In this document: piece by piece, positions 3,640 through 64,000 of the stretch
Position numbering within the stretch: the stretch's first letter is position 1
Layout of the letters: the number at the start of each line of letters is the position of its first letter
Assembly: GCA_947493745.1 (NCBI GenBank)
Contig: CANLSM010000001.1
Location: 89,913-153,912, forward strand
Length of the DNA stretch: 64,000 bases
Source: an uncultured Rhodobacteraceae bacterium
GTDB taxonomy: Bacteria; Pseudomonadota; Alphaproteobacteria; Rhodobacterales; Rhodobacteraceae
Direction of reading: 5' to 3'
Position numbers and translations under genes: made by a program
Notes under the pieces: generated by a model
Seen by the model: the letters and a program-made list of their open reading frames with translations, nothing else
Told to the model about the DNA's origin: nothing
The model's database searches: none

Positions 3640-3799
3640 GGGTACGTTTCTCCCTTGTGTCCGCCCTCTTCTTGAAGGGGCTGAAATTCCTGTACGGGCC
3701 GCATGCGCAGCACCTCGCCGAACCTGATAGCCCGACTGCAACTATTGGTCCAGCGGACTTTGCGACGCAGTCTGGTAAACGCGAAAGGGTAAAGGAAGT

Positions 3800-4777: not shown

Positions 4778-4907
4778 TACCCGGCCGAAGTTTCAGCAAA
4801 AAATCCGGCATTTCAATGACACCACGTCACGTTTTGGCGAGACGTGATTGCCAAGTCACAGCATTGGCCGCATCTGTAGGGCCGAGCAAAGAACGGGATT
4901 CTTCAGA

Positions 4908-37155: not shown

Positions 37156-38763
37156 ATGGCTGTTCTGAAGTCCCAAGTCGCGGCAGGGTCCGAGGGGTTC
37201 AAGGCCAACCAATCCGCGCATCTGGCAGCACTTGAGGGTATCGCAGAGGCGGTGCAGCAGGCCCATCGGGGCGGCGGCGAGACAGCGCAGGAGCGTCATG
37301 TCTCGCGCGGCAAGATGTTGCCACGGGACCGGGTGGCCAATCTTCTGGACCCCGGCTCCGCCTTTCTGGAGGTCGGCGCCACGGCAGCTCATGGCATGTA
37401 TGGTGATGCGGCACCCGGCGCGGGCGTGATCGCGGGGATCGGGCGTGTCTCGAGTCTCGATGTCATGATCATCTGCAACGATGCGACCGTGAAGGGTGGC
37501 ACATATTATCCCATGACGGTCAAAAAGCATCTCCGCGCGCAGGAGATAGCCGCCGAAAACCATCTGCCTTGCGTCTATCTGGTCGACAGCGGCGGGGCCA
37601 ATCTGCCCAATCAGGACGAGGTCTTCCCCGACCGTGATCATTTCGGACGGATTTTCTACAATCAGGCGAACATGTCGGCGCTGGGCATTCCACAGATCGC
37701 GGTCGTCATGGGTTCGTGCACGGCCGGTGGGGCTTATGTCCCTGCGATGTCGGATGTGACGATTATCGTGAAGGAGCAGGGAACAATCTTTCTGGCGGGA
37801 CCGCCGCTGGTCAAGGCCGCTACAGGCGAAGAGGTTTCCGCCGAGGATCTGGGCGGCGGCGATGTGCATACCCGGCTTTCGGGCGTGGCTGACTATCTGG
37901 CCGATGATGATGCTCATGCCCTGGCGCTGGCCCGACAGGCCGTTGCTGGTCTGAACCGTCAGAAGCCGCGAACCGTCCTGCTTCAGCCCAGCGAGGATCC
38001 GGCCCATGACCCTTCCGAGCTGCTCGGCGTTGTCCCTGCCGATCTGCGCACCCCTTACGATATCCGCGAGGTCATCGCGCGGCTTGTCGACGGCTCCCGC
38101 TTTGACGAGTTCAAGGCGCGTTTCGGTGAGACGCTGGTCTGCGGCTTTGCCTATATCACTGGCATTCCTGTGGGGATCATCGCGAATAACGGCGTGCTGT
38201 TTTCCGAGAGCGCCCAGAAAGGCGCGCATTTTGTCGAGCTGTGCTCGACCCGCAAGATCCCGCTGATTTTCCTGCAAAACATCACCGGCTTCATGGTCGG
38301 TCGGAAATATGAAAGCGAGGGCATCGCGCGTCACGGGGCCAAGCTGGTGACAGCCGTGGCGACCACCAGGGTTCCCAAGATAACGATGCTGGTCGGCGGT
38401 TCTTTCGGTGCCGGAAACTACGGCATGGCGGGCCGGGCCTATTCGCCCCGCTTCCTGTGGACATGGCCGAACTCCCGGATTTCCGTGATGGGCGGAGAGC
38501 AGGCCGCAGGCGTTCTGGCCACTGTCCGTCGCGCCGGGATCGAGCGAAAGGGTGGCAGTTGGAGCACGAACGAGGAAGCCGCCTTCAAGCAACCGATCCT
38601 CGATCAGTTCGAAGAGCAGGCGCATCCGCTTTATGCCTCCGCGCGGCTCTGGGATGACGGGATTATCGACCCGCGAAGGTCCCGCGATGTCCTGTCCCTG
38701 TCACTTCGCGCTTCCCTCAACGCCCCCATCGAGGACACGCGTTTCGGCATTTTCAGGATGTAA
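37156..38763 (+). CDS. liuB: methylcrotonoyl-CoA carboxylase, carboxyltransferase (beta) subunit
   Basis: 535-aa carboxyl_trans protein adjacent to the biotin carboxylase, HMG-CoA lyase and hydratase genes. Confidence 0.9.
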
Positions 38764-38766
38764 CCG

Positions 38767-39255
38767 ATGGCTCGCCCGCGAAAAAAGAAGTCCTACAAGC
38801 GCCGGGGCGGCAGCACGTTCATCATCCTGCTGCTGATGATCTCGTTTTGCATAGGCATCGCCACCGGCCGCATCGAGATGATGTGGAAGATGGCGCAACG
38901 ATACACAGACGAGACGCGGCCGAAATGCGAGGTGATCCGGGTGATCGACGGCGACACCGTCTCGCTCCACTGCCGGGAGACCGGCTTCGAGAGATTGCGG
39001 ATCATGGGATATGACTCGCCCGAGATCTTCTCGCCGGATTGCATGGAAGAGCTTGTGAAGGGCTACAAGGCGCGGTGGGATCTGCAACGCATCCTGTGGT
39101 CCAGCGACAAGCTGTTCTTCGTGTTCCGTGGCCGTGACCGCTATGACCGCCGCCTGGGTGAGATCCGTGTCGGCGGGCGGAGCGTTTCCAGACAGATGAT
39201 CGAGACCAGCTATGCCCGTCCTTACAACGGCGGCAGGCGAGAGAGATGGTGCTGA
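38767..39255 (+). CDS. membrane-anchored thermonuclease (SNase-like) family protein
   Basis: N-terminal TM helix, then VIRVIDGDTVSL...LRIMGYDSPE...DRYDRRLGEI, which is SNase-like. Inserted between liuB and liuD. Confidence 0.65.
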   Translation: MARPRKKKSYKRRGGSTFIILLLMISFCIGIATGRIEMMWKMAQRYTDETRPKCEVIRVIDGDTVSLHCRETGFERLRIMGYDSPEIFSPDCMEELVKGYKARWDLQRILWSSDKLFFVFRGRDRYDRRLGEIRVGGRSVSRQMIETSYARPYNGGRRERWC

Positions 39256-41213
39256 TGTTGAACAAGATCCTGATCGCCAACCGGGGCGAAATTGCCTGCC
39301 GTGTGATCAAGACGGCCCGCCGGATGGGCATCGCGACCGTGGCGGTCTATTCAGATGCGGATGCGGATGCGGCCCATGTCGAGATGGCGGATGAGGCTGT
39401 TCATATCGGCCCGCCTCCCGTTGCGCAAAGTTACCTTCAGGGCGCGCGGATCATCGAAGTGGCGCTCAAGACGGGGGCAGGAGCGATCCATCCCGGCTAT
39501 GGGTTTCTGTCCGAGAACCCGGAATTCGTTGAGGCCGTGACCGCTGCCAGTTTGCGCTTCATCGGGCCGCCGGCGGATGCCATCCGGGCTATGGGTCTGA
39601 AAGACGCAGCAAAGGCGCTGATGGAGCAATCGGGCGTGCCCGTGGTGCCCGGGTATCACGGAACTTCTCAGGACCCGGCGTTTCTTGCCGAACAGGCTGT
39701 GACGATCGGCTACCCGGTGCTGATCAAGGCGCGCGCAGGCGGCGGCGGCAAGGGGATGCGCAAGGTCGACGATCCAAAGGACTTCGATGCCGCCCTGCAG
39801 GCCGCCCGGCGCGAGGGTGAGGCCAGTTTCGGCGACCCGGCCTGTCTGATCGAGAAGTGGATCACCACGCCCCGCCATATCGAGGTGCAGGTCTTTGGCG
39901 ATGATCACGGCAATGTCGTGCATCTCTTCGAGCGGGACTGCTCCTTACAGCGCCGTCATCAGAAGGTGATCGAGGAGGCACCGGCACCGGGCATGACATC
40001 CCAGATGCGCGATGCGATGGGACAGGCTGCGGTTCGGGCCGCGAAGGCCGTGAACTACTCCGGCGCGGGCACCGTGGAGTTCATCGTGGACGCGACCGAC
40101 GGGCTGAAAACCGATGGTTTCTATTTCATGGAGATGAACACCCGGCTGCAGGTCGAACATCCGGTGACGGAGGCGATCTCGGGCCTTGATCTGGTGGAAT
40201 GGCAGCTTCGCGTCGCCTCAGGCGAGCCGCTGCCGCTCCGTCAGGACGACCTGACCCTCAAGGGATGGGCCTTCGAGGCGCGACTCTACGCAGAAGACGT
40301 CGAGGCGGGTTTCCTGCCTGCAACCGGGCGGCTGACCCATGTCGATCTGCCCGAAACGATTGCGCGGATCGACAGCGGCGTCCGCACGGGCGATGTGATC
40401 TCGCCGCATTATGACCCGATGATCGCGAAGATCATCTGCGAAGGGCCAGACCGGGAGAGTGCGCTGACCGCCCTCAACCAGGCGCTGCGTCAGGCGCGGA
40501 TCGCAGGCGTGACAACCAATGTCACCTTCCTCCATGCGCTGACGGAGCATGAGGGATTTCGCAGGGGCGAGGTCGATACCGGGCTGATTGAACGCGACCT
40601 GTCCGACCTGACCGCTCACGATGATGACCCGTTCGAACCCGGCCTGGCGGCGCTCGCCACGCTTGGCTTTCTGGATCGGGCCAGAGATCCGGAATTGGGA
40701 TGGACGCTCTGGAAACCGCTCGCACAGTCGGTGCGGCTGTTTGAACATGAGACAGAGCAGACGCTCCGCATCGAAATCCCCCAGCCCGGAAAGTTCAAGG
40801 TGATCGGGGACGAGACGCTGGAGCTGGACGTGCTCGATGTCACGGGGACGAAGATCACCTTCGTCGCCGGGGGTATCCGTCGGGCCGTGCATGTGTCCCG
40901 CACAAGAGATGAGGTGACTGTGTTCGGGACGCGGGTCCGGCGCTTCACGATCCCCGATCCGCTTGATGCCGGGATGGGGGATACCGGTGATGCGATCATT
41001 CGTGCGCCGATGCCCGGCCTCGTCAAGCTGGTGCATGTGCAGCAGGATCAGACCGTGTCCGAGGGTGATCCGCTTCTGGTTCTGGAAGCCATGAAGATGG
41101 AGCATGTGCTGAAGGCCGCGACAGAGGGCAGGGTGATCTCGCTGTCTGTCGGGGAGGGCGATCAGGTCGAGGCCGGAGCCATTCTGGCAGAGGTCGAGCC
41201 GAACGATGGCTGA
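39255..41213 (+). CDS. liuD: methylcrotonoyl-CoA carboxylase, biotin-carrying (alpha) subunit
   Basis: Biotin carboxylase N-terminus KILIANRGEIACRVI and C-terminal biotinyl motif EAMKMEH. ATG at 39255 overlaps the nuclease stop (TGATG). Confidence 0.9.
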   Translation: MLNKILIANRGEIACRVIKTARRMGIATVAVYSDADADAAHVEMADEAVHIGPPPVAQSYLQGARIIEVALKTGAGAIHPGYGFLSENPEFVEAVTAASLRFIGPPADAIRAMGLKDAAKALMEQSGVPVVPGYHGTSQDPAFLAEQAVTIGYPVLIKARAGGGGKGMRKVDDPKDFDAALQAARREGEASFGDPACLIEKWITTPRHIEVQVFGDDHGNVVHLFERDCSLQRRHQKVIEEAPAPGMTSQMRDAMGQAAVRAAKAVNYSGAGTVEFIVDATDGLKTDGFYFMEMNTRLQVEHPVTEAISGLDLVEWQLRVASGEPLPLRQDDLTLKGWAFEARLYAEDVEAGFLPATGRLTHVDLPETIARIDSGVRTGDVISPHYDPMIAKIICEGPDRESALTALNQALRQARIAGVTTNVTFLHALTEHEGFRRGEVDTGLIERDLSDLTAHDDDPFEPGLAALATLGFLDRARDPELGWTLWKPLAQSVRLFEHETEQTLRIEIPQPGKFKVIGDETLELDVLDVTGTKITFVAGGIRRAVHVSRTRDEVTVFGTRVRRFTIPDPLDAGMGDTGDAIIRAPMPGLVKLVHVQQDQTVSEGDPLLVLEAMKMEHVLKAATEGRVISLSVGEGDQVEAGAILAEVEPNDG

Positions 41214-42060
41214 GCATGTCCGCATATTCGAGATGTCGCCGCGCGACGGATTGCAGAACGAAGCACGGATTATCCCGACCGCACAGAAGATCGAGCTGGT
41301 CAATCACCTCTCAGCCTGCGGTTTTGAGAGGATCGAAACGGCCAGTTTTGTCAGCCCTAAATGGGTGCCGCAGATGGCCGACGGCGCGGAAGTTCTGGCG
41401 GGTATCACACGCAGACCCGGCGTGCGCTACACCGGCCTGACACCGAATATGCAAGGCTTCGAGCGTGCAGTGGCCGCGGGTGTTGATGAGGTTGCCGTCT
41501 TTGCATCCGCCTCGGAAGGGTTTTCCAAGTCCAACCTCAACTGCTCCATTGCGGAAAGCCTTGAGCGGATGAAACCCGTGGTACAGGCCGCTCTCAAAGC
41601 GGGTATTCCGGCGCGCGGATATGTCTCCTGCGTGACCGATTGCCCCTTTGACGGCCCGACGCCTCCTGCGGCGGTGGCCAAGGTCGCGCGGGACCTCATC
41701 GCCATGGGATGCTACGAGATCTCGCTGGGTGACACGATCGGAACCGGCACGCCCGAAACAATCGCCGCAATGCTGGCGGAAGTTCTGGACGACATCGACC
41801 CGGACCGGCTGGCCGCGCATTATCACGATACCGGGGGCCGCGCGCTCGACAATATCGAAGTGTCGCTGGAACGTGGTCTGCGGGTCGTCGATGCCTCGGT
41901 TGGCGGGTTGGGCGGCTGTCCCTTCGCCAAGAGCGCGACGGGGAATGTCGACACGCTCGCCGTTGTCGAGCGGTTGAACAGCCTTCGCTATGAAAGCGGG
42001 CTCGATGCCGCACGGCTCAAGGATGCCGCAGAGTTTGCGAAAGGTCTGAAACATGCCTGA
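41206..42060 (+). CDS. liuE: hydroxymethylglutaryl-CoA lyase
   Basis: IFEMSPRDGLQNE N-terminus and HYHDTGGRALDN motif. Confidence 0.9.
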   Translation: MAEHVRIFEMSPRDGLQNEARIIPTAQKIELVNHLSACGFERIETASFVSPKWVPQMADGAEVLAGITRRPGVRYTGLTPNMQGFERAVAAGVDEVAVFASASEGFSKSNLNCSIAESLERMKPVVQAALKAGIPARGYVSCVTDCPFDGPTPPAAVAKVARDLIAMGCYEISLGDTIGTGTPETIAAMLAEVLDDIDPDRLAAHYHDTGGRALDNIEVSLERGLRVVDASVGGLGGCPFAKSATGNVDTLAVVERLNSLRYESGLDAARLKDAAEFAKGLKHA

Positions 42061-42841
42061 CACCGTGGATTTCAACGCCGACAGAAACGGCATTGCCCGG
42101 CTAACGCTGAACGAGCCCGAGCGGCACAACGCCCTGTCACCCGCGATGATCGCCGAGGTGACCGCGCTTGCAGGCGAGATCGCCGAAGACAAAACCGTTC
42201 GCGCGGTGATCCTGACCGGGTCGGGCAAAAGCTTTTGTGCAGGCGGCGATCTCAACTGGATGCGCGAGCAGATGCAGGCCGACCGGGAGCAACGGATGCG
42301 CGAAGCCCGCAAGATCGCCGGAATGCTCCATGCGCTCAACACGCTTCCAAAGCCGCTGATCGGACGGGTTCAGGGCAACGCCTTTGGCGGAGGTGTGGGG
42401 ATGTTGTCGGTCTGTGACGCAGTGATTGCCGTCGATACGGCCCGTTTCGGACTGACCGAAACGCGGCTCGGGCTGATCCCGGCAACAATCGGACCATATG
42501 TGATTGCCCGGCTGGGTGAAGCGCGGGCGCGGCGCTACTTCATGTCTTCACGTCTGTTCGATTGTGCGGAAGCCCACCGCCTCGGGCTGGTGTCCGAGAT
42601 GGTTCCGGCGGACAGGCTTGATGCCACAGTCGAGGCGGAAGCGAAGGCCTATCTCGACACGTCACCCGACGCCGTCGCGTCGGCCAAGGCCCTTGCACGA
42701 GCACTGGGGCCGCACATCGATGACAGCGTGATCGACATGACCATCGGGCGTCTTGCAGATACCTGGGAGACCGCGGATGCACGCGAGGGGGTCAGCGCGT
42801 TCTTTGAAAAGCGCAAACCAGGCTGGGTTCCACAAACGTAA
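42053..42841 (+). CDS. liuC: enoyl-CoA hydratase family (methylglutaconyl-CoA hydratase by context)
   Basis: Crotonase fold (FCAGGDL, GNAFGGGVG), directly after liuE. Confidence 0.8.
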   Translation: MPDTVDFNADRNGIARLTLNEPERHNALSPAMIAEVTALAGEIAEDKTVRAVILTGSGKSFCAGGDLNWMREQMQADREQRMREARKIAGMLHALNTLPKPLIGRVQGNAFGGGVGMLSVCDAVIAVDTARFGLTETRLGLIPATIGPYVIARLGEARARRYFMSSRLFDCAEAHRLGLVSEMVPADRLDATVEAEAKAYLDTSPDAVASAKALARALGPHIDDSVIDMTIGRLADTWETADAREGVSAFFEKRKPGWVPQT

Positions 42842-53714: not shown

Positions 53715-55058
53715 TCAGCTTTCCGAAAAGGCACGGTCGGAGAGTGTTCTCAGCGGTTTGAGCATGTAGCTGAGGATGGATTTTCGACCGGTTCTGATGT
53801 CTGCGACCACAGTCATCCCCGGCAGAACCTCATGCAAGGGGTCGGGGGCACCGGAGGCAAGGGTAAAGCTCTCCTCCAGCGCGAGACGGACGCGAAAAAC
53901 GGTCGAGCCATCGGGCTTCACAAAGCTTGATGGCGACACCTGCTCCACGGTCGCATCGAGATCTCCGAAACGGGTGAAGTCATGTGACAGCACCTTGATG
54001 CTCGCGGCACTTCCCGGTCGGACTGTGCCGATCCGCTCGGCACTGATCTCGACCTCGGCGAAGACATCCTTGCCGAGCGGAACCAGTTCGGCCACAAGCG
54101 CGCCGGGCGGCACGACCTGATGAGCGTTCTGAAAGCCCAGCGCCAGAAGCACACCGTCAGAGGGCGCGCGGACAAAGGTGCGGGTTTTCGCGCCCTCAAG
54201 CTGCGTGATTGATTGCTCGACAATGCGCAAGGTCGAGACGGTTTCGGCCAGTTGCGCCGCCGCCTCCCGCCGGAAACCGGTCAGCAGTTCGGTTTCGCGA
54301 GCCGCGGATTGCTGAATTCTGGCGGCAAGAATTTCCTGCTCGCCGACAAGACCGGCGATCTCGCCTTGTTTCTGCAGAACTTCCCGGCGCACGGATTCTA
54401 TTCGAACCCGCGTCGTCGCGGCGCGCGCGCCCGGGGTATCAAGGCGTGCGGCATAGGCTGAAAGGATGGAAAAATCGGCCTTCAGACTGGCAAGGCGCTG
54501 TGCGGCACGGTCCTGTTCAGCCTCCAGTACCTCACGCTCCGCCCGCGCCAGTTCAATCTGCGCGGCAACATGCGCTGCCTGGGAGGCCTGTTCGGATACA
54601 AAACTCTCATCCTGAACGGTCAGCCCCGAAGGCAGGCCCGCCTCGAGATCCGCAAGAAAGGCACGTTGCCGCCGCAGGTCGCGAGAAAGATCGGCGGCCT
54701 GAACATGCAGTTTGGCAAGCTCAGCACGAATGCTTGCCTGGTCGAGTTCCATCAGCAAATCGCCCTCCCGGACGGTCTGTCCTTCCGAGACATGAACGCG
54801 CGCGACGACGCCGCCATCAAGATGGTCGATACGTTGAATCAAGCCAACCGGACGCACCGACCCGGGTCCGGAGACAATTTCATAGACGGGTGTGAATGAA
54901 GCCCAGACCAAGAAACCAAAAAAACCAAGGACGACGGCCCAGATGGTCATCCGCGGGATGCTTCCCGAATGCGCTTCCTCCAGCAGGCCGCTGTCAGCAA
55001 GCCCCGAACGGGCAGGCAAAGTGGCGCGCTCAGGCTTTCGTTTTGATGACAGGATCAT
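53715..55058 (-). CDS. HlyD-family type I secretion periplasmic adaptor
   Basis: One N-terminal TM helix, a lipoyl-like hairpin (VHVSEGQTVREGDLLMELD), a long coiled coil and a beta-barrel C-terminus. Confidence 0.85.
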   Translation of the reverse strand: MILSSKRKPERATLPARSGLADSGLLEEAHSGSIPRMTIWAVVLGFFGFLVWASFTPVYEIVSGPGSVRPVGLIQRIDHLDGGVVARVHVSEGQTVREGDLLMELDQASIRAELAKLHVQAADLSRDLRRQRAFLADLEAGLPSGLTVQDESFVSEQASQAAHVAAQIELARAEREVLEAEQDRAAQRLASLKADFSILSAYAARLDTPGARAATTRVRIESVRREVLQKQGEIAGLVGEQEILAARIQQSAARETELLTGFRREAAAQLAETVSTLRIVEQSITQLEGAKTRTFVRAPSDGVLLALGFQNAHQVVPPGALVAELVPLGKDVFAEVEISAERIGTVRPGSAASIKVLSHDFTRFGDLDATVEQVSPSSFVKPDGSTVFRVRLALEESFTLASGAPDPLHEVLPGMTVVADIRTGRKSILSYMLKPLRTLSDRAFSES

Positions 55059-57259
55059 GATTGTTGTCCCCTGGTTTCGGTTGGTGGCCCGAAGCTGACC
55101 ATCTGACCGGAATTCAGCGACAGAACCAGATCTGTCTGGCGCATATGGCTGGGTCGGTGGGTCACCATGAGGCAGGTCATCCGCCCCCTGCGCGCGCTCA
55201 GAGCCCCGATCATGGCCCGCTCATATTCCGGCGAGAGCCCCGAGGCGGGCTCGTCAAGCAGAAGCACCGTCGGTTTCGCCAGCAGGGCCCGGCCAAGACA
55301 GATCATCGACACGAAACCGGGGGTGAGATGCGATTGCACGGTGTGATCCAGCCGCGTTTCAAGCCCCTTGGGCAGGTTTTCGATGTCTCCGGTCAGATCG
55401 AGCGAAGTGATAAGGCCGTCGATCTCGTCCCGGCTCGCATGGGGTGCCGCAATCGTCAGATTCTGCAGCAGCGTCCCATGAAACAGCATCGGCGACTGAC
55501 TGACATAGCCGATATTCTGCGAAAGAACTGACCTTGGCAGCTGATCGAGATTGATCCCGCCGAGGCTGACCGTGCCCGATACTGGATGCAGCAGACCGCT
55601 CATCAGTCGCAGCAGCGTCGTCTTGCCCGATCCCGACGGGCCGGTCACCGCAATGAAGGCCCCCTCCTCGATGGAGAAGGAAATGTTCGACAGGGTCGGC
55701 ATGGCGGATCGTGGATAGCGGAAAAAAACACCCTCGAAGCCGGGGCTGGCAGAGATCTGCTGCCAGACCTGGACATTGCCGGTCCTGGTGGTCCCCTCCA
55801 GCGCCATCAACCCGTCGATCTGGCGAAAGAGGTTCTGGATGTCAGGCAAACTCGCCGCTGCAACCAGCGCCTGCTGGATCGGTGCCAGAAGGCGCCACAG
55901 AAGGATGGTCGTGGCAATCAGGACACCGGTCTGCAGGCTCCCCTGCATCACAAGCCAGGCGCCCAGTACCAGAACCGCACCGGCACAGACCGGTGTCAGC
56001 AGAGTTGAGAGGGTCCGCAGATTTCGTGACTGGGTCTCGACCTTCAGACGTCGCTCGACACTTCGCCTGATGCTGGTCGTCAACCGCTCGGTCCAGATCG
56101 GACCGATACCGGAGCGTGCGATCTGCATCCGCTGAGCCAATGTCTCGAGAAGAAGTTTGGAATGCTGGGTCCGTGCCACCGAGTACCGCATGGACGCCGT
56201 CCTCAGCTTGGGGAAGATGAAGGCGCTCGCTGTTGCGAACGTGACTATGATCGCGATCAGGAGAAGCCCGATCATCGGGCTGATGACCGTGACGGTGGCG
56301 AGCAGCATCAGGGCGAATGGAAGTTCAAGCAAGACCGCCACGACAGGTCCGTTGAAGATATCGCGGACCGTCTCGAACTGTTTTAGACGGCTGATCTGCT
56401 CGCTGACAGACGCGTTTGCGATCATTTCGATCCTGAGAGCCATCAGTTTGGAAAAGAGCGCCGAGCCCAGAAGATACTCAGTCCGGCCCGAGATGCGCCC
56501 GACCAGACCGGCCCTCAGACGCCGGAGAAAGAGGTCCATCGCGATAAGTCCGGCCAACCCGATCATGAGTGCAGCCAGCGTGTCATAGGCCTTCGCGGGG
56601 ATGACCTTGTCGAAAATCAGAATGATGAAGAGCGAGGCCAGAATGACCAGCGTATTGGACAGGAAAATCAGCGCCAGAAGGTTCCGCACCTCCGGCGTGA
56701 AACGCTGCAGGGTCTGTTTTGTCCAGCTTTCGCGTGCCCCTGCGGATCCGGCATCGTCATGTTCCTGAAAGACGATACACTCATAGAAAACAGTCGGTTC
56801 CAGTGTTTGTGGCAACCTCGTTTCGACGTTGAAAAAGCCGGGCTGCCCATCACTGTTGGGCAACAACATTCCTGCGGGCGTGATCACGAGCGTCGTGGGC
56901 GAGGCGGCGTCGAGATCTTTGCCACGCGCCTGAACAGAGCGGCTCTCAAAGCCGAGCCGGTGCATCGTTGCCCGCATGTCGGTAAGTGTAAAAGCCTCGG
57001 GGTAGTGCGGCAGGGCACCGACAAAGCTGCGCATGTCAACTGCCCAATCGAACCGCCCGAGCAGGTCCTGCAAGGCATTCACGACAGGGCCGTAGAGAGG
57101 CGTACCGCAGGCCCGCCCGCTGCTCAGGCATTCGGCCAGCGTATCAAGCGCGAACCGTCTGCTCTGCGCATCCATCTGGCCAAGGCCGATCTTCACGTCA
57201 TGGGCCATAAACCTGCCCTGAGCGCGAATGCTCCCCGGTTCTGCGGCGGGCGCGCTCAT
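55055..57259 (-). CDS. ABC exporter half-transporter with an N-terminal extension of about 170 aa (C39-like position); T1SS/bacteriocin-exporter type
   Basis: TMD plus NBD. Walker A GPSGSGKTT, Q-loop VSQSP, Walker B LLLDEP and H-loop VTHRP are present. The signature position reads LTPGF instead of LSGGQ. Confidence 0.8.
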   Translation of the reverse strand: MSAPAAEPGSIRAQGRFMAHDVKIGLGQMDAQSRRFALDTLAECLSSGRACGTPLYGPVVNALQDLLGRFDWAVDMRSFVGALPHYPEAFTLTDMRATMHRLGFESRSVQARGKDLDAASPTTLVITPAGMLLPNSDGQPGFFNVETRLPQTLEPTVFYECIVFQEHDDAGSAGARESWTKQTLQRFTPEVRNLLALIFLSNTLVILASLFIILIFDKVIPAKAYDTLAALMIGLAGLIAMDLFLRRLRAGLVGRISGRTEYLLGSALFSKLMALRIEMIANASVSEQISRLKQFETVRDIFNGPVVAVLLELPFALMLLATVTVISPMIGLLLIAIIVTFATASAFIFPKLRTASMRYSVARTQHSKLLLETLAQRMQIARSGIGPIWTERLTTSIRRSVERRLKVETQSRNLRTLSTLLTPVCAGAVLVLGAWLVMQGSLQTGVLIATTILLWRLLAPIQQALVAAASLPDIQNLFRQIDGLMALEGTTRTGNVQVWQQISASPGFEGVFFRYPRSAMPTLSNISFSIEEGAFIAVTGPSGSGKTTLLRLMSGLLHPVSGTVSLGGINLDQLPRSVLSQNIGYVSQSPMLFHGTLLQNLTIAAPHASRDEIDGLITSLDLTGDIENLPKGLETRLDHTVQSHLTPGFVSMICLGRALLAKPTVLLLDEPASGLSPEYERAMIGALSARRGRMTCLMVTHRPSHMRQTDLVLSLNSGQMVSFGPPTETRGQQS

Positions 57260-58929
57260 CCTGCCAGCACCATCTGCTCTTGCCTGAGAACCAGTGGATG
57301 TATGGTTTCGGTCAGTTTTCCCCGGTTGAAATGGATCTCCCGGTTGGCGAGCATCTGATAGGATGGACGATGACTGACCATGATCAGGATCAGGTCGGGC
57401 ATGCGTTCGCGCAACAGTTCCAGCAAACGATGGTCGGTGTCGAAATCCAGACTGGTATTGGCTTCGTCAAACAGGATGACCTGAGGCTGGCCGACCAACC
57501 CTGCGATCATCAGGATGGCATCCGAGATCGACTTTGGCAGCACACTGGCCTTGCTGGCCGAGACCCGCAGCCCGAGCCCCTCGGGGATACGGGCAATGAA
57601 GCGGTCGATCCCGAACCGACTTGTCAGATCCAGCGCCTCATCAAGATGCGCAACGCCGGAAAATCCTGTCAGATTGTCCAGCAGCGTCCCCTCAAGCAGG
57701 TGGTCATTGCTTGTCAGCATCCGGACCTGACGCTGGCGTTCGCCAAAGTCGAAAACCTCCGCGGGCTGTCCATTGAACAGCACGCCTCCGTCCTGAGCCG
57801 CGATCTGCCCGGCGATCAGACGCAAAAGTGAAGAACGACCCGCACCTTCAGGGCCACGCAGCAGCACGCAATCACCTCGTCTGAAGGTGAAATTCAGATC
57901 ACTCAGCCTTGGTGGGGCACGCGGATCGGGCTGCCATGTGAGATGGCGAAGCTCCAGCTTGTCGATCCGCGGCAGACACTCCGTACCGCATTCGATCAGG
58001 GACCGGTCAAAGAGCGAGGTCAGCTCGGCCTCGTGTCTTTTGGTGTCTTCTTCGCCCACCAGCAACGCCTCAAGCCGCAGCACCGGCTGGATGATCCGGC
58101 CGGTCAGCAACACCGTCGCCGCCAATTCGCCCATGGTGATGCTTTCCTGAATGACCAGGATCGAGCCTACACTGGCCGAAACGACTGGTCCCAACAGGCC
58201 GATTGCCCCGATGATGCCCTGGATGAGTTGGTTGCGTTCGGCAAGTTGTGCATTGATCGACGCACTCGACGACAGCAGCCGTTCATATCTGCGTTCCAGA
58301 TTGGCCTCGATCGCCAGACCTTTCACCGTATCGATGCCGGACAAGGTCTCGATCAGGAAGGATTGCCGCCGCTCATCCGCCTGCTGCCGCGCGAAATTCA
58401 GTGTCAGCACCTCCCGGCGCATCAGGCGCACGATGATGAACATCGCCGTGACCAGAGACAGGATGACCAGGGCAATGGGGAGTGAAATGAGCGCCATCAG
58501 CCCCAGAAACATGATGATGAACGGCAGATCGAGAAGCGCCGCGGATGCATCGCCCGTGTAGTAGGAACGCAGCCGTTCGATATGCCGGAGCTTGTTGTAG
58601 AGAACGCCGGGTGCATCGCTGACACTGATGGTCGATCGCCCGTCCAGCAGCCTCCGAACCGTGGCGGCATGGGTGCTGACCTCAAATCTCGCCCCGAACG
58701 TCGCCAGCAGCACCGATCTTGAGAACCGCAGGGCCGCATCCGCGAGAAGCGCCACGCCGAGGCCAATGGCCAATGCGATCAGGGTTGCGGTGCCGCTGTT
58801 CGGTATGATCCGGTCATAGACCTGGATCATCACGATGGGCAAAGCCAGGCTGAGCAAATTGGACGTCAGGGAGGCGACAAGGATATGCGGATTCCGCCGC
58901 AAGGCCCGCAATTCGCCAAAAACCGGCAT
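57256..58929 (-). CDS. ABC exporter half-transporter with a degenerate NBD (no N-terminal extension)
   Basis: Walker A GPEGAGRSS (Lys replaced by Arg), no Q-loop Gln (MLTSND), signature position VLPKS, Walker B ILFDEA, H-loop VSHRP. Start trimmed from TTG 58950 to ATG 58929, which is preceded by GGAGCGG. Confidence 0.75.
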   Translation of the reverse strand: MPVFGELRALRRNPHILVASLTSNLLSLALPIVMIQVYDRIIPNSGTATLIALAIGLGVALLADAALRFSRSVLLATFGARFEVSTHAATVRRLLDGRSTISVSDAPGVLYNKLRHIERLRSYYTGDASAALLDLPFIIMFLGLMALISLPIALVILSLVTAMFIIVRLMRREVLTLNFARQQADERRQSFLIETLSGIDTVKGLAIEANLERRYERLLSSSASINAQLAERNQLIQGIIGAIGLLGPVVSASVGSILVIQESITMGELAATVLLTGRIIQPVLRLEALLVGEEDTKRHEAELTSLFDRSLIECGTECLPRIDKLELRHLTWQPDPRAPPRLSDLNFTFRRGDCVLLRGPEGAGRSSLLRLIAGQIAAQDGGVLFNGQPAEVFDFGERQRQVRMLTSNDHLLEGTLLDNLTGFSGVAHLDEALDLTSRFGIDRFIARIPEGLGLRVSASKASVLPKSISDAILMIAGLVGQPQVILFDEANTSLDFDTDHRLLELLRERMPDLILIMVSHRPSYQMLANREIHFNRGKLTETIHPLVLRQEQMVLAG

Positions 58930-59204
58930 TGTCCGCTCCAAACCGCTCAAAATTGATCCTCGTGGCCCGGCTTAGTCCTCAATGGCGAAGATAGCGTTAA
59001 TCCAAGGTCAGCGGGTTCCCGTGCGGCAACGACTATTGGAAACACCGACCCGGGATCATACCTCCCCCTGGCGGATATGCCCCAAGCCGGGGGCTGTTGT
59101 CGCAATGAAACGGTGCGAGGCGAAAATGACAGAGGTTTTGACCATTCCGCCTGTGGAAGGCATAAAGGCTGGACGCATACCGCTTTGTTGAGGAACCGCT
59201 CAGC

Positions 59205-60473
59205 GTGATCATTCCCCATCATGTGACCGAAATGCTGGCCCGTGTCCGTGCCCGCATCATGCGCCCCGGCGGCGAGCAATCGCTGGACCCGAAGCCCGAG
59301 GGGGCGCACAGTTATCGCCCGGTTCGCACGGCCAGCGAAAAGAGCATCGCGCGGTATTGGGATCTTCTGATGAAGGGAGCAGCGTCAGCGACCGATCAGG
59401 AAGCGCTTGCCGACCCGACAACACTTGCGGATGCCGCAAGCTACAGCGCCAACATCGAAAACATGATCGGAACCGTCAAGGTACCGGTCGGCGTCGTCGG
59501 CCCGCTTCGGGTGAACGGCGTCTATGCCAATGGCGATTTTACGGTGCCGCTGGCCACCACAGAGGCCGCCCTCGTCGCGTCCTATGCACGCGGCGCGCAT
59601 ATCGCCTCGCGCGCTGGCGGGATCAGCACGGCGGTACTTTATGAGGGTGTGCTGAGAACCCCCGCCTTTGTCTTCGAGACACTGATGCAGGCCGGGCAGT
59701 TCGTGGACTGGGTTGTGTCCCATATCGACGGGCTCAAGTCCGAGGCCGAGAAGACCACCCGCCACGGCAAGCTTGTCTCGGTGGAGCCTGTGATCGACAC
59801 CAATGTCGTCTTCCTGCTTTGCCGTTATACCACCGGAGACGCTTCGGGGCAGAACATGGTCACGATCGCAACCGATGCGTTCTGCCGTCATGCCGCCGAG
59901 ACCTGTCCGGTTCCCATAAAGCGCTGGTATGTCGAAGGGAATTTCTCGGGCGACAAGAAAGCCTCGGCACTGGGCATGCTGACCGGGCGCGGTCGGAAGG
60001 TCAGCGCATCGGTCGTCCTGCCGGATGAACTGATCGGAAAGCTGCTCGGCACAACTGCCGAGGCAATGCTGGACTACGGGCGGGTCGCCAATCTGGGCGC
60101 GCTCTTCTCCGGTCAGATGGGAGCGCAGGCGCATTATGCGAACGCTCTGGCGGCGCTTTACATCGCCACTGGTCAGGATGCGGCCTGCGTTGCGGAAAGT
60201 GCTGTCGGGTTCACCCGGATGGAGCCGCATGAGAACGGGTTGTTCTGTTCGGTCACGATGCCCAATATCCTTGTCGGCTCGGTCGGGGGAGGCACGGGTT
60301 TGCCCAGCCAGATGGCGGGCCTCAACATCATGGGGCTGAAAGGTGCCGGCAAGGGAGCCGCATTGGCCGAAGTCACGGCAGCGCTCTGCCTATGCGGCGA
60401 GATATCCATCGTGGCGGCCCTCTCGGCCGGGGATTTCGTCCGGGCGCATGAGAGCCTCGCCCGGCACCGATGA
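59205..60473 (+). CDS. hydroxymethylglutaryl-CoA reductase family protein (class-I-like soluble catalytic domain)
   Basis: ENMIGTVKVPVGVVGPL, TTEAALVAS, DASGQNM, GNFSGDKKASA, GQDAACVAES, GSVGGGTGL and a C-terminal FVRAHESL, colinear with HMGR catalytic motifs. The start is uncertain (GTG 59205, ATG 59232 or ATG 59259). Confidence 0.8.
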   Translation: MIIPHHVTEMLARVRARIMRPGGEQSLDPKPEGAHSYRPVRTASEKSIARYWDLLMKGAASATDQEALADPTTLADAASYSANIENMIGTVKVPVGVVGPLRVNGVYANGDFTVPLATTEAALVASYARGAHIASRAGGISTAVLYEGVLRTPAFVFETLMQAGQFVDWVVSHIDGLKSEAEKTTRHGKLVSVEPVIDTNVVFLLCRYTTGDASGQNMVTIATDAFCRHAAETCPVPIKRWYVEGNFSGDKKASALGMLTGRGRKVSASVVLPDELIGKLLGTTAEAMLDYGRVANLGALFSGQMGAQAHYANALAALYIATGQDAACVAESAVGFTRMEPHENGLFCSVTMPNILVGSVGGGTGLPSQMAGLNIMGLKGAGKGAALAEVTAALCLCGEISIVAALSAGDFVRAHESLARHR

Positions 60474-61375
60474 CCCAAAGCCTCGCCTCACGCCTCTGGA
60501 TCTACCAGAAGGAGCGGTTTCCGCTGATCAAAACCCTGCCCCTGCTTGCAGTCTTCTCGGCGGCCAGCATCAATGTCTCGGCCATGATGGCCGGACGGGA
60601 TCTACCGGGCTGGGGGACATATGCAGCAGGTCTCGCACTGGCGCTGATCCTCTTTTTCCAGATGCGGGTCTGCGACGAGAACAAGGACCTTGAGGACGAC
60701 ACCCGTTATCGCCCCGAACGCCCGATCCCGCGCGGGCTCGTCAGCCTGAGGCTGATCACCGGACTGGGGCTGCTCACCGTGCCGCTGGCCGTGCTGGTTG
60801 CATGGAGCACTTCTGTTCTGTGGCTTCTGGCCATTGTGTGGATCTGGCTGGCCGCAATGACGTTCGAGTTCGGCGCACCGACCTGGCTGAAGGCACGACC
60901 GGTGCTTTACCTGCTCAGTCACATGGCGATCATGCCGTTGATCGACCTGCTGCTCACCGGGCTGGAATGGACCGGGACGGGTCCCGCACCGGACCTCTGG
61001 CTCTTTCTTGCGCTCTCGTTTGTCAACGGTTGCGTTCTGGAACTGGGCCGCAAGATCTGGGCACCGACTGCTGAACGCGAAGGGGTCGAGACCTATTCCG
61101 GGCTCTGGGGGCCACGGCGGGCGACGCAGATCTGGGTGGGACTGCTGCTGCTCGCCTTCGGCTTGTTGCTCGGCGTCGGGCTGAGCCTCGGCACGGTCTG
61201 GCCCATGGCGATTGCCGGTGGGCTGGGGCTTGCCGCATGTCTCATGGTCGCTGGCCGATATCTGCGAAACCCCGATGAGAAGGCACAGGCGCAGGTCGAT
61301 ATGATGGCTGGTTTCTGGGTCCTCATTTGCTACGGCTCTGCCGGATTTCTGTCACTTCTTGCCGGAGGTCCCTGA
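60470..61375 (+). CDS. UbiA-superfamily-like integral membrane transferase (divergent)
   Basis: About 8-9 TM segments. Asp-rich loop CDENKDLEDDTRYRPERPIPRG after TM2. The second acidic loop is Glu-based (ELGRKIWAPTAEREGVETYSGLWG). The ATG overlaps the HMGR stop (ATGA). Confidence 0.65.
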   Translation: MTQSLASRLWIYQKERFPLIKTLPLLAVFSAASINVSAMMAGRDLPGWGTYAAGLALALILFFQMRVCDENKDLEDDTRYRPERPIPRGLVSLRLITGLGLLTVPLAVLVAWSTSVLWLLAIVWIWLAAMTFEFGAPTWLKARPVLYLLSHMAIMPLIDLLLTGLEWTGTGPAPDLWLFLALSFVNGCVLELGRKIWAPTAEREGVETYSGLWGPRRATQIWVGLLLLAFGLLLGVGLSLGTVWPMAIAGGLGLAACLMVAGRYLRNPDEKAQAQVDMMAGFWVLICYGSAGFLSLLAGGP

Positions 61376-63816
61376 TGGATCCTGTCATTTCCTCAGTCGC
61401 GGCCAGAGTTGTTGACGAGGTCGGAGGCAAGGCAACCTCGCTGAATGCCCTGATCCAGGCCGGATTCCGCGCCCCTGATTTCTTTGTCATCCGGGCAGAG
61501 GCGATAAGGGACGGCCAACCCTCCTCTACCCTTGAAGATGCTCTGCCCGATGCACTCCGCGCGCTTGGAGACGGGCCATTTGCCGTGCGCTCGTCCGGGC
61601 GGGCCGAGGACGGTGCCGAGCACAGCCATGCGGGGCAGTTCGAGACCTTGCTGAACGTCGCCACGGGCGAGGTTCTGGCAGCGGCCGTAAAGGTCTGGAA
61701 GTCCGGCTTCTCGGAAACGGTCGCCACCTATCGCAACGTCAAAACCGGTGGGACGGCAGAGGCCCCGGCCATCATCGTGCAAAGGATGATCCCCGCGGAC
61801 ACCGCAGGCATCGCCTTCTCGGCGGACCCCGTGACGGGCCTGCGCGATCGGGTGGTGATCTCGGCAATCTCGGGGCTCGGGGAACAACTGGTTTCGGGCG
61901 AGGCGGATGGTGAGGACTGGGTCGTCGGATCCGACAACACTCCGCTAAAGATGCCGGACCAGCCGGAGGTTCTGAGCGCTGATCAGGCAGCCGACATCAC
62001 CGATCTCGCACGACGGGCCGAGGAAGCGTTCGGCAGACCTCAGGACATCGAATGGGCCATCGCGGATGGCATCCTCTACATCCTTCAGTCCCGCCCCATC
62101 ACCACCGAACTGCGGCCCCACGCCGTGCCCGACGATGCGCTCATCGTGCTCGACAACTCGAACATCGTGGAAAGCTATCCCGGACTGGTCTCGCCGCTCA
62201 CATATTCGTTCGCGGCTTACGTCTATGCCCGCGTCTACCGGGCCTTTGTGCGGCTGCTCGGCGTTCGCGAGCCTGCAATAGCTGCCCATGCGGCAGTCTT
62301 CGACAACATGCTCGCGCGGGTGGATGGCCGGGTCTACTACAATCTTGGCAACTGGTATCGGGCGCTGGCGCTGCTACCGGGCTTCTCGCTCAACCGCGCC
62401 TATATGGAGACGATGATGGGCGTCTCCGAACCGTTGCCTGCGGAACTCACCGACAGCATCGGCGCGGCTCCGGCAAGGGGGTTCGGCAGGGTCATGGAAT
62501 GGCTGAAGGTGCTGCCGGTCGGCCTTGGTCTGATCTGGCAGGCCAGCATATTACCGCGGACCTGCCGCCGGTTCTATGCGCGGCTCGGGCGGGCCCTGGA
62601 TCAGGCCCCGGACCTCAAGGCCGCCAACCTGACCACACTGGCTGATGAATATCGCAAGATCGAGGCTGAACTGCTGGATCAATGGGACGCACCGCTGATC
62701 AACGACTTTCTCTGCATGATCGGTTTCGGCGCATCACGGAACATGCTGGAGAAATGGCTGGGAGAGGACGGGCTGCATCTGCACAACGATCTGATGATCG
62801 GACAAGGGGATATCGTCTCTGCCGAACCTGCGCAGCGCATCGCCAAGATGGGCGCGATGGTGCGGGTTGCGGGGATCGCGGACCGGGTCGAGGCGGAGGG
62901 ACGTCGCGCGCTACGCGATCTGCCGACCGTTGAAGCGGAGGTCAACGCCTATATCGCCAAATTCGGGGACCGCTGCACACAGGAACTGAAGCTGGAGAGC
63001 ATCCCGCTGGATCAGGATGACACTGCACTGATTGCAGCCATTGCCGCCAGCGGCCGGCGGGAGGCGGCCCCCGTCATAGAGCGCCGCGACCCCGACTGGT
63101 CGACGCTTTTTGCCAGCAAACCGGTGCGCCGGATCATTGCGCGTGGCTTCACCAACTGGGCGAAGGCAAGGGTCCGCGACCGGGAGAACCTGCGGTTCGA
63201 GCGGACACGGATCTTCGGCCATGCGCGACGGGTCTTTCTGGCGATGGGGCGGGAGCTTACGGCACTTGGCCATCTCGACGCAGATCGCGACATCTTCCTG
63301 CTGACGGTCGAGGAGGTATTGGGGGCCGTCGAGGGCAACGCCCTGTCACAGGATCTCAAGGCTTTGGTCGCGTTGCGCCGAGCGGAGGAGGCAGCCTCCG
63401 CCACACGCGCCGATCCGCCCGAGCGCATCCTGGTTCGGGGTGCGGCGGTCAACCTGCCGATTGAGCATCAGTCATCGCAGGTGGAACTGAGCACCGCACA
63501 AAGCCAGACGGCAACGGGTTGCTCGGCCGGACAGGTGACCGCGACAGCCCGTGTGATTACCGACCCGCGCACCCAGACATTGACGCCTGGTGAAATCCTG
63601 ATCGCCACCAACACCGATCCGGGCTGGATTGCCGTGTTTTCCAATGCGTCGGCCATCGTGGTAGAACGCGGCTCGCTGCTGTCACACTCCGCCATTGTCG
63701 CGCGTGAGCTGGGCATCCCTTGTGTCGTCGGGCTGAAAGACGCGACGCGCTGGATCACGTCGGGTGAGCAGATCGAGGTCAACGGCAAGACCGGAGAAGT
63801 CAGGAAACTCGAATGA
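61375..63816 (+). CDS. PEP-synthase-family ATP-grasp / swivel-phosphohistidine dikinase lacking the PEP/pyruvate TIM-barrel domain (rifampicin-phosphotransferase-like architecture)
   Basis: N-terminal PPDK_N-like domain (VGGKATSLNAL...FAVRSSGRAEDG...SHAGQFETLLNV...IAFSADPVTG...QDIEWAI). C-terminal mobile domain (ILIATNTDPGWIAVFSNASAIVVERGSLLSHSAIVARELGIPCVVG). The protein ends about 35 aa later. The ATG overlaps the UbiA-like stop (TGATG). Confidence 0.75.
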   Translation: MDPVISSVAARVVDEVGGKATSLNALIQAGFRAPDFFVIRAEAIRDGQPSSTLEDALPDALRALGDGPFAVRSSGRAEDGAEHSHAGQFETLLNVATGEVLAAAVKVWKSGFSETVATYRNVKTGGTAEAPAIIVQRMIPADTAGIAFSADPVTGLRDRVVISAISGLGEQLVSGEADGEDWVVGSDNTPLKMPDQPEVLSADQAADITDLARRAEEAFGRPQDIEWAIADGILYILQSRPITTELRPHAVPDDALIVLDNSNIVESYPGLVSPLTYSFAAYVYARVYRAFVRLLGVREPAIAAHAAVFDNMLARVDGRVYYNLGNWYRALALLPGFSLNRAYMETMMGVSEPLPAELTDSIGAAPARGFGRVMEWLKVLPVGLGLIWQASILPRTCRRFYARLGRALDQAPDLKAANLTTLADEYRKIEAELLDQWDAPLINDFLCMIGFGASRNMLEKWLGEDGLHLHNDLMIGQGDIVSAEPAQRIAKMGAMVRVAGIADRVEAEGRRALRDLPTVEAEVNAYIAKFGDRCTQELKLESIPLDQDDTALIAAIAASGRREAAPVIERRDPDWSTLFASKPVRRIIARGFTNWAKARVRDRENLRFERTRIFGHARRVFLAMGRELTALGHLDADRDIFLLTVEEVLGAVEGNALSQDLKALVALRRAEEAASATRADPPERILVRGAAVNLPIEHQSSQVELSTAQSQTATGCSAGQVTATARVITDPRTQTLTPGEILIATNTDPGWIAVFSNASAIVVERGSLLSHSAIVARELGIPCVVGLKDATRWITSGEQIEVNGKTGEVRKLE

Positions 63817-64000
63817 GCCAGGCCGATATCGCCACACGCGCCAGTTTCGAGGCCATTCGCTATGCCCAGTTGTGGGAGGATGCGGATGTGCTGACGCAGG
63901 CCATGGGCGATGTGGCGGGCAAAACCCTCGTCTCGATCTGCTCGGCGGGTGACAATGCGCTGGCGCTCCTGACACTTGATCCAGCCAAGGTGGTCGTGCT
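63813..64000 (+). CDS. BtaA/DUF3419-like SAM-dependent enzyme (N-terminal 62 aa only; continues beyond the window)
   Basis: Hand translation MSQADIATRASFEAIRYAQLWEDADVLTQAMGDVAGKTLVSICSAGDNALALLTLDPAKVVV. The RYAQxWED and SxxSAGxNALxLL blocks match what I remember of the BtaA/DUF3419 N-terminus. The ATG overlaps the upstream stop (ATGA). Confidence 0.55.
   Translation, partial: MSQADIATRASFEAIRYAQLWEDADVLTQAMGDVAGKTLVSICSAGDNALALLTLDPAKVVV

Follow-up and report, generated by a model that had tools for sequence, protein, structure and literature searches.

To our knowledge, 3-hydroxy-3-methylglutaryl-CoA (HMG-CoA) reductase (HMGR) has been treated as a family with a single reaction, and genome annotation labels every member of the family "hydroxymethylglutaryl-CoA reductase". 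An HMGR-like gene heads the operon described here, which starts at position 59205 of a 64,000-nucleotide stretch of DNA (the window) from an uncultured Rhodobacteraceae bacterium (assembly GCA_947493745.1, contig CANLSM010000001.1). Several described systems come close to parts of this operon. Phytol and prenol salvage in plants and cyanobacteria uses the phytol kinase VTE5, the phytyl-phosphate kinase VTE6 and the phytyltransferase VTE2, which belongs to the UbiA family. Late archaeal phospholipid synthesis uses digeranylgeranylglyceryl phosphate synthase, also of the UbiA family, the CDP-archaeol synthase CarS and CDP-alcohol phosphatidyltransferases. The betaine lipid diacylglyceryl trimethylhomoserine (DGTS) is made by the BtaA/BtaB pathway, in which BtaA is the S-adenosylmethionine (SAM):diacylglycerol 3-amino-3-carboxypropyl transferase. 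The analysis of the window and its relatives suggests, with a probability of about 0.5, that the operon makes a membrane-bound amphiphile by way of an acid-derived alcohol, the reductase being re-purposed, and does not make mevalonate for isoprenoid supply.

The logic proposed for the operon resembles that of the adenylation-thioester-reduction (A-T-R) acid reductases joined to a line of prenol salvage and UbiA transfer. It would share the passage from adenylation to thioester to reduction with carboxylic acid reductases and nonribosomal peptide synthetase (NRPS)-like A-T-R enzymes, and some relatives of the reductase are single polypeptides of adenylation, peptidyl carrier and reductase domains (A-PCP-reductase). 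The reductase domain of the operon, however, has the HMGR fold and not the short-chain dehydrogenase/reductase (SDR) fold of the A-T-R enzymes, and the parts of the window operon are separate proteins without a carrier protein, so that CoA is presumably the carrier. As in phytol salvage, a membrane lipid-alcohol kinase of the CTP_transf_1 family and a second phosphorylation are proposed to precede transfer by a UbiA-family enzyme, but the second kinase would be a dikinase resembling phosphoenolpyruvate (PEP) synthase and not VTE6/DUF92, the alcohol would be made in situ from an acid, and the DUF3419 and GNAT proteins have no counterpart there. Like the archaeal phospholipid route, the operon combines a UbiA-like protein with an RPxRPIPRG-type loop and a membrane protein that is likely to belong to the CTP-transferase superfamily, and one variant cluster encodes both a CarS-like protein and a CDP-alcohol phosphatidyltransferase; unlike that route, the operon encodes neither geranylgeranylglyceryl phosphate synthase nor glycerol-1-phosphate dehydrogenase. 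The DUF3419 (PF11899) protein, like BtaA, suggests SAM-dependent transfer of a 3-amino-3-carboxypropyl group to a lipid hydroxyl, but in place of a BtaB-type N-methyltransferase, which is missing from the seven-gene unit, there is a GNAT protein, so that acylation of the amine, not trimethylation, would be expected. Each of the proteins belongs to a known superfamily, and the product may be a new lipid class. A search of full-text literature found no description of the gene set, in a coverage without most subscription-journal papers in which prior work is possible.

The four open reading frames (ORFs) on the plus strand between 59205 and 64000 are chained by stop/start overlaps of 1–4 nt, exactly at the coordinates of the original prediction (Table 1). 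The ATG of the UbiA-like gene (60470–60472) overlaps the TGA of the reductase gene (60471–60473), the ATG of the dikinase gene (61375–61377) overlaps the TGA of the UbiA-like gene (61373–61375), and the ATG of the DUF3419 gene (63813–63815) overlaps the TGA of the dikinase gene (63814–63816). Overlaps of this kind are frequent in operons and alone prove little; both the overlaps and the gene order were seen again in relatives. The four families read by eye were confirmed by HMM searches as HMG-CoA_red, UbiA, PPDK_N with PEP-utilizers, and DUF3419. The GTG at 59205 is supported as the start of the reductase because a database protein is 100% identical across all 422 aa and because the N-terminal peptide is kept in relatives, whose start at the same position is ATG. 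Judged by orthologous loci, the unit does not stop at four genes, as had been thought, but is an operon of seven, of which these ORFs are the first four; the remaining three lie beyond position 64000, where the window ends, and were read from those loci.

Table 1. Coordinates of the operon and of its upstream region in the window.
Feature	Position	Strand	Family match or remark
Intergenic, presumed promoter region	58951..59204	+	Separates divergent type I secretion ABC gene from operon
HMGR-like thioester reductase, 422 aa, GTG start	59205..60473	+	PF00368 1.6e-107
UbiA-superfamily integral membrane transferase, 301 aa	60470..61375	+	PF01040
Rph/PigC-type dikinase, 813 aa from ATG 61375	61375..63816	+	PF01326, PF00391
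DUF3419/BtaA-family SAM-dependent transferase, 5' end, 62 codons, continues past window	63813..64000	+	PF11899

Orthologues of the reductase with 68–75% identity are very common in Rhodobacterales. Contigs of Cognatishimia sp. MH4019 and of a Ruegeria carry the four genes of the window followed by three more, with overlaps of 4–8 nt throughout; this downstream trio encodes a polytopic membrane protein of 426–443 aa, a protein of 279–281 aa and an AMP-binding enzyme. The same seven-gene arrangement is found on a Roseinatronobacter plasmid, and the flanking genes are unlike in the Cognatishimia, Ruegeria and Roseinatronobacter loci. Genes 5–7 were seen downstream of the DUF3419 gene in loci L001, L002 and L003. 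When plasmids were searched with the dikinase by tblastn, a copy with 40% identity was found in Brevibacillus laterosporus, a member of the Bacillota, at a locus with all seven genes in the same order. The Brevibacillus and Cognatishimia proteins are 31–54% identical in pairwise comparison. The stretch of the B. laterosporus B9 record NZ_CP011076 that holds this operon (L004) is without any annotation. There a cytochrome P450 gene (16720–17946) overlaps the end of the AMP-binding gene like an eighth gene of the operon, and two FecCD-type permease genes (3431–5508) lie upstream.

The breadth of the system was measured in one genome per GTDB species with patterns derived from the alignment of the reductase subfamily. 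Relatives of the reductase were found in at least 596 species genomes, of which the best 80 loci were analysed by running hidden Markov models built from the seven proteins on all of their ORFs. The complete seven-gene set was present in 38 of the 80 loci, which with four found earlier gave 42. The usual order is reductase, UbiA, dikinase, DUF3419, membrane protein, GNAT and AMP-binding, with a circular permutation or a divergent split in a few loci. Judged by their record titles, carriers of the complete set belong to nine phyla: Verrucomicrobiota, Planctomycetota, Acidobacteriota, Bacteroidota, Deinococcota, Desulfobacterota, Chlamydiota, Pseudomonadota (alpha, beta/gamma) and Bacillota. Sets truncated by contig edges were found in cyanobacteria, in Armatimonadota and in a metagenome-assembled genome (MAG) labelled Halobacteriales. 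The four families first noticed in the window thus recur as neighbours, and the view that they form one co-transcribed module is supported by synteny in the 42 loci; chance adjacency of the four genes was ruled out by synteny across the nine phyla. When recurrent accessory genes were sought in and around about 40 clusters, no further family appeared in more than five loci, and no polyprenyl-diphosphate synthase, mevalonate-pathway gene or BtaB-type methyltransferase recurred in or beside them. The seven genes can for this reason be regarded as a self-contained module, and the lack of a recurrent polyprenyl-diphosphate synthase agrees with a donor of the cluster's own making. A BtaB-type methyltransferase, for which it had been proposed to look past position 64000, does not follow the DUF3419 gene in the orthologous loci.

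The reductase matches PF00368 with 360 bits (1.6e-107), and its best match of solved structure is the archaeal class I HMGR (EC 1.1.1.34) of Methanothermococcus thermolithotrophicus (6HR7, 285 bits), with which it shares fold, domain and catalytic residues. Alignment with 6HR7 and AtHMG1 placed the catalytic motifs TTEAALVAS, GDKK, GQDAA and RAHES and confirmed that the Glu, Lys, Asp and His thought to be intact are kept as Glu559, Lys691, Asp767 and His866 (human numbering). Arg590, Asn755 and the ENxIG and GGGT motifs are also retained. Since the fold and all of these residues and motifs are kept, the enzyme very probably still performs two hydride transfers on a pantetheine thioester. The substrate pocket of the reductase is unlike that of class I HMGR. 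Ser684 of the cis-loop is replaced by Glu, the motif SGNxCxDKK becoming VEGNFSGDKK, and Lys735 is replaced by Ala. Both residues bind the carboxylate of HMG, the terminal carboxylate of which forms a salt bridge with Lys735 in the crystallographic work (PMC9500038). The NADP-site motif GDAMGMNM is GDASGQNM in the window reductase and GDA[AS]GQNM in the subfamily, and the score of 314.6 bits against TIGR00533, the NCBIfam equivalog model for NADPH-dependent HMGR, lies below its cutoff of 441.8.

These changes are properties of a whole branch. All of the roughly 80 subfamily members that were checked carry a Ser684/Lys735-type change. In the cluster-linked reductases examined, the first of these positions is always Glu or Asp and the second always Ala, Ser, Gly or Cys, whereas Ser and Lys are retained by canonical archaeal-type sequences in the same alignments. 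Comparison of 152 sequences obtained with HMMER from 1.84 billion cluster representatives gave an acidic residue at the Ser684 position in about 108 of them, and canonical HMGRs appeared only lower down the list, so that the branch with the altered pocket accounts for most of the closest representatives in this library. Because the residues that bind the free carboxylate are lost, the reductase is read as acting on an acid other than HMG, and it has probably been re-purposed: from an acid it would give an alcohol, activated by phosphate, for a lipid-like product of the membrane, and not mevalonate. If this is true, these reductase genes are mis-annotated and a mevalonate route should not be deduced from them.

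The original prediction had instead proposed a true HMGR, which would use the HMG-CoA of leucine catabolism to make mevalonate, or a closely related hydroxy acid, for later phosphorylation and coupling. The strong PF00368 match, the four catalytic residues and the 285 bits to 6HR7 agree with such an enzyme, and a route from thioester to alcohol, phosphate and diphosphate formally parallels that from HMG-CoA to mevalonate, mevalonate phosphate and mevalonate diphosphate. In favour of this reading, HMG-CoA lyase and methylcrotonyl-CoA carboxylase are encoded 17 kb upstream of the operon (liu cluster, 37156–42841). The genes noted earlier in the window, namely dxs, that for farnesyl diphosphate synthase and the liu genes for carboxyltransferase, biotin carboxylase, HMG-CoA lyase and enoyl-CoA hydratase, were confirmed at the places given. 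HMG-CoA and mevalonate are nevertheless disfavoured as substrate and product by the subfamily-wide replacement of Lys735 and Ser684, which hold the HMG carboxylate, and by the score below the equivalog cutoff. A supply of substrate by the liu cluster is not supported either, as this cluster is a neighbour of the operon in no other genome, the flanks differing in each, and as the operon has its own acid-activating, adenylating enzyme, while reductases elsewhere are fed from a carrier-protein domain. That the reductase stands outside a mevalonate pathway, as had been noted, is supported as far as its neighbourhood goes: unlike class I HMGR it is never found beside mevalonate-pathway genes, none of which recurs next to it, and its neighbours in the 42 loci are the same six non-mevalonate genes. 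Mevalonate is accordingly the least supported of the readings considered and is regarded as improbable.

A further difference from class I HMGR is that the reductase is linked or fused to adenylation, carrier, kinase and DUF3419 domains. The fusions seen were AMP-binding with reductase; AMP-binding, PP-binding (a phosphopantetheine carrier), reductase and EcKL/APH kinase; reductase with APH; reductase with DUF3419; DUF3419, reductase and APH; and reductase with ACBP. Among 56 long reductase representatives, APH was found in 29, EcKL in 25, AMP-binding in 10, PilZ in eight, the carrier domain in five, DUF3419 in two and ACBP in one. Variant clusters were found at four bacterial loci. L085 has dikinase, AMP-binding, reductase-APH, DUF3419, an MMPL exporter and a UbiA-like protein, and L087 has AMP-binding-reductase, formyltransferase, UbiA, dikinase, MMPL and DUF3419. 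L088 consists of AMP-binding (cut), DUF3419-reductase-APH, UbiA and dikinase, and L089 of A-PCP-reductase-kinase, CDP-alcohol phosphatidyltransferase, dikinase, UbiA, the CarS-like protein and PilZ. The AMP-binding, reductase, dikinase and UbiA functions are kept in all of the variant clusters, the CTP_transf_1-like membrane protein is swapped for a soluble APH/EcKL kinase fused to the reductase, and a formyltransferase can stand in for GNAT. Lipid-type RND exporters (MMPL/HpnN-like) and archaeal-like late phospholipid enzymes are sometimes added. The transporters of L085 (13680–16052) and L087 (17559–20030) are of the MMPL or sterol-sensing RND type (HpnN-like), and their position inside the clusters points to export of a lipid product.

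The UbiA-like protein scores 46.7 bits against PF01040 (3.2e-12; cutoff 34.2). Its first Asp-rich motif and loop, DExKDxEDDxRYRPxRPIPRG, are invariant in five orthologues from two phyla. The dikinase gave matches to PF01326 (1.4e-45) and PF00391 (4.1e-25), the only Pfam matches at E<=0.01, and has the three-part architecture of rifampin phosphotransferase (Rph) and of the prodigiosin ligases PigC and RedH, with an ATP-grasp domain, a central Rph_4th-type domain (PF27448 was found in orthologues) and a swivel phosphohistidine domain. It contains the motif GSLLSHSAIVARELGIP, and the phosphohistidine motif of the swivel domain is GSLLSHSAIVAR. The PEP/pyruvate-binding TIM-barrel domain (PF02896) was not found, as it is not in Rph, PigC and RedH, and a true PEP synthase or pyruvate phosphate dikinase was rejected because this domain is missing. 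The closest solved relatives are the rifampin phosphotransferases 5FBS and 5HV1. Among NCBIfam models the protein matches PigC (1.4e-77), RedH (5.1e-78) and Rph, but it remains below all of the equivalog cutoffs (at best 646 against 883), is about 30–40% similar to these enzymes over parts of its length and differs from them in genomic setting.

The matches of the dikinase to PigC and RedH could also be taken to mean that the cluster makes a diffusible secondary metabolite such as a pigment, siderophore or signal, the PigC/RedH-like enzyme being an ATP-dependent condensing enzyme that works on an aldehyde or alcohol made by the reductase. The P450 gene appended to the Brevibacillus operon, the FecCD permeases upstream of it and the type I secretion genes adjoining the operon in the window would suit such a product, but these secretion and FecCD neighbours are not conserved. 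A content of seven genes that is constant over nine phyla with almost no tailoring genes is atypical for secondary metabolite clusters, two of the partners are integral membrane enzymes, and the MMPL/HpnN-like lipid exporters, CarS-like protein and CDP-alcohol phosphatidyltransferase of the variants belong with lipids. A diffusible metabolite is thus held to be unlikely, to much the same degree as mevalonate, and the lipid-like amphiphile is preferred.

The DUF3419 protein matches PF11899 with 2.8e-11 over the 62-aa fragment in the window and with 1.3e-57 as a full-length orthologue, and no solved relative was found by sequence. Only the first ~215 residues of gene 5 are conserved across phyla, and some lineages encode that domain alone. 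Several sources list relatives of it as phytol kinase, dolichol kinase, diacylglycerol/polyprenol kinase or CDP-diacylglycerol synthase, and three of 78 wider relatives match PF01148. Neither its sequence nor the fold of its full-length AlphaFold model found a match in the PDB. The model of the domain (predicted local distance difference test score, pLDDT, of 87) has its best PDB fold match in CdsA (4Q2G) with a probability of 0.98. A profile comparison with the CarS-like protein of L089 using hhalign gave nothing. Membership of gene 5 in the CTP_transf_1 superfamily (CdsA, phytol kinase and dolichol kinase) is likely but not proven. Gene 6 matches PF00583 (GNAT) with 4.2e-11 in its Brevibacillus orthologue, the Rhodobacterales proteins alone have no Pfam match, and a family profile built from many phyla matches GNAT structures only, and weakly. 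One ORF of a Parachlamydiales MAG (L014, from 1332) joins a CTP_transf_1-like membrane domain to a GNAT domain, which suggests N-acylation at the membrane.

Gene 7 matches PF00501 with 1.4e-38 and has the ANL motifs TSGSTGxPK and YGSTE and the C-terminal catalytic Lys, all of which are conserved in 20 orthologues. The model closest to it is "fatty acid CoA ligase family", and it gives scores with the models for OleC and for amino-acid adenylation (TIGR01733, 6.6e-31) as well. Its substrate motif has neither the His of acyl-CoA synthetases nor the Asp of NRPS enzymes. Its solved relatives include the adenylation (A) domains 3WVN and 5JJP, which we take to be specific for beta-amino acids.

The properties of gene 7 bear on the main competing explanation, an amino-alcohol lipid. 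In that scheme the BtaA-like enzyme would act first and attach the 3-amino-3-carboxypropyl (homoserine-type) group to a lipid alcohol. The carboxylate of this group would be activated by the AMP-binding enzyme and reduced by the HMGR-like enzyme to an amino alcohol, and phosphorylation by the kinase and N-acylation by GNAT would lead to an aminolipid that resembles ceramide phosphate or is of the ether type. Earlier or later roles would fall to UbiA and the dikinase, for example in making an ether-linked chain. The TIGR01733 score and the relatives 3WVN and 5JJP agree with an amino-acid substrate, but the NRPS A4 Asp that binds the alpha-amino group is missing when read by eye, and ordinary acyl groups of a lipophilic kind are suggested by the ACBP fusion and by A domains of the fatty-acid-ligase type. 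In two representative clusters DUF3419 and the reductase form a direct fusion, three of the fused kinases match the choline/ethanolamine-kinase model, and a GNAT or formyltransferase implies a free amine. The shift of charge in the reductase pocket also fits, since an acidic residue gained where a carboxylate-binding Lys is lost could hold an ammonium group. The scheme leaves the universally conserved UbiA and dikinase without a defined role, however, and it is judged unlikely, though less so than either mevalonate or a diffusible metabolite.

The route that is favoured for the membrane amphiphile starts from an acid that would be converted by the adenylating enzyme to a thioester, on CoA or on the carrier domain of the fused forms. 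Four-electron reduction of this acyl thioester by the HMGR-derived enzyme would give a primary alcohol, to be phosphorylated by the membrane kinase-like protein of gene 5 or, elsewhere, by the fused APH/EcKL domain. The dikinase would add a second phosphate to form a diphosphate ester, from which the UbiA-like enzyme would transfer the group to a membrane acceptor. The BtaA-like enzyme would add the 3-amino-3-carboxypropyl group from SAM, and its amine would be N-acylated by GNAT (by the formyltransferase in one variant), giving a membrane-bound amphiphile, that is, a lipid. Gene content, conservation, residue substitutions and domain fusions are observed; from these we infer in which order the steps run, that phosphorylation takes two steps, what kind of acid is used and what the acceptor and product are. 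The general sequence of reduction, phosphorylation, a UbiA step at the membrane and addition of a SAM-derived group had already been put forward, and this part fits the domain fusions. The idea of an unusual lipid is supported as well; HMG-CoA or mevalonate as substrate or product is not. UbiA enzymes normally need an allylic (or phosphoribosyl pyrophosphate-like) diphosphate. Because UbiA chemistry favours allylic diphosphates, our guess is a lipophilic acid, be it 2-enoic, 3-methyl-branched (isoprenoid-type) or a fatty acid, whose reduction would yield an allylic alcohol. The loss of the carboxylate-binding Lys, the ACBP fusion and the membrane kinase are in line with a lipophilic acid, and Rph, the closest solved relative of the dikinase, phosphorylates hydroxyls of hydrophobic small molecules, an analogy that would fit the proposed role.

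Several points weigh against this route. The proposed order of steps is deduced only from domain order and analogy. The second Asp-rich motif of UbiA enzymes (DxxxD) is not kept and a conserved NGxxLExGRK stands in its place, the Asn and Glu of which could still bind Mg2+. A saturated alkyl diphosphate would be a poor UbiA donor, and the 2-enoic or isoprenoid acid is conjectural. We know of no precedent in the Rph/PigC branch for a dikinase that turns a monophosphate ester into a diphosphate. The family membership of gene 5 is weak, as the 20 Rhodobacterales members match nothing in Pfam or NCBIfam and the fold match to CdsA has a template modelling (TM) score of only 0.29. A purely lipophilic substrate does not explain why an acidic residue stands at the Ser684 position, and the fusions of DUF3419 with the reductase fit better with a model in which the carboxylate of the 3-amino-3-carboxypropyl group is reduced.

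Taken more widely, and more tentatively, HMGR-fold enzymes that have moved off HMG-CoA could form a large family of thioester-to-alcohol reductases, which would also include the solitary "archaeal" HMGR of Vibrio, long a puzzle. Together with their partners these enzymes would produce membrane lipids of a new class in nine or more bacterial phyla. An example would be an ether- or prenyl-linked, N-acylated amino-lipid built from the diphosphate of an acid-derived alcohol. If true, roseobacters, Verrucomicrobiota, Planctomycetota, Acidobacteriota, Bacteroidota and others have a widespread lipid or lipid-like product that has been overlooked, and the old question of why bacteria with the methylerythritol phosphate pathway, such as Vibrio, have retained an archaeal-type HMGR could be addressed with defined partner genes and a defined enzyme assay.

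Solitary reductases of the same non-canonical subfamily occur in Vibrio, Photobacterium and Thalassomonas. One is encoded at 9854–11173 of the Vibrio cholerae ATCC 14035 locus (L053), and the others lie in L020, L021, L033, L039, L043, L047, L048, L050, L052, L055, L056, L058 and L061. Their signature is GDASGQNM; Asp occupies the Ser684 position, and the Lys735 position is Thr, Asn or Ser. None of the six partner genes was found within 10 kb. The neighbours of the V. cholerae gene encode an H-NOX protein with a histidine kinase, a molybdate-type ABC transporter and CobQ. A third HMGR-like group (P0268, P0276, P0294, P0300, P0316 and others) consists of proteins of 500–750 aa that have LRSNFSSDKK, show Ile or Val in place of Arg590 and keep the canonical DAMG[LM]NM; the eight of 56 long representatives with the PilZ (cyclic di-GMP-binding) domain were counted independently of this group.

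Upstream of the operon, the intergenic region yielded neither a sigma-70-like site nor a terminator, there was no noteworthy Rfam match in a search for a leader RNA, and no sequence upstream of the reductase start codon is conserved with relatives. Beyond it, on the minus strand and divergent from the operon, positions 53715–58950 encode an HlyD adaptor and two tandem LssB-type type I secretion ABC permease/ATPases, which do not adjoin the operon in other genomes. The cluster in the Halobacteriales-labelled MAG (L031, 8182–16524) is of bacterial type and runs for six genes up to the contig end, with a reductase 57% identical to that of Brevibacillus, and its presence in this bin reflects either mis-binning or lateral transfer. 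The non-canonical reductase branch also includes P0253, which is from eukprot, a set of eukaryotic proteomes (gene name Clim_evm48s147), and the family is on this account not confined to bacteria.

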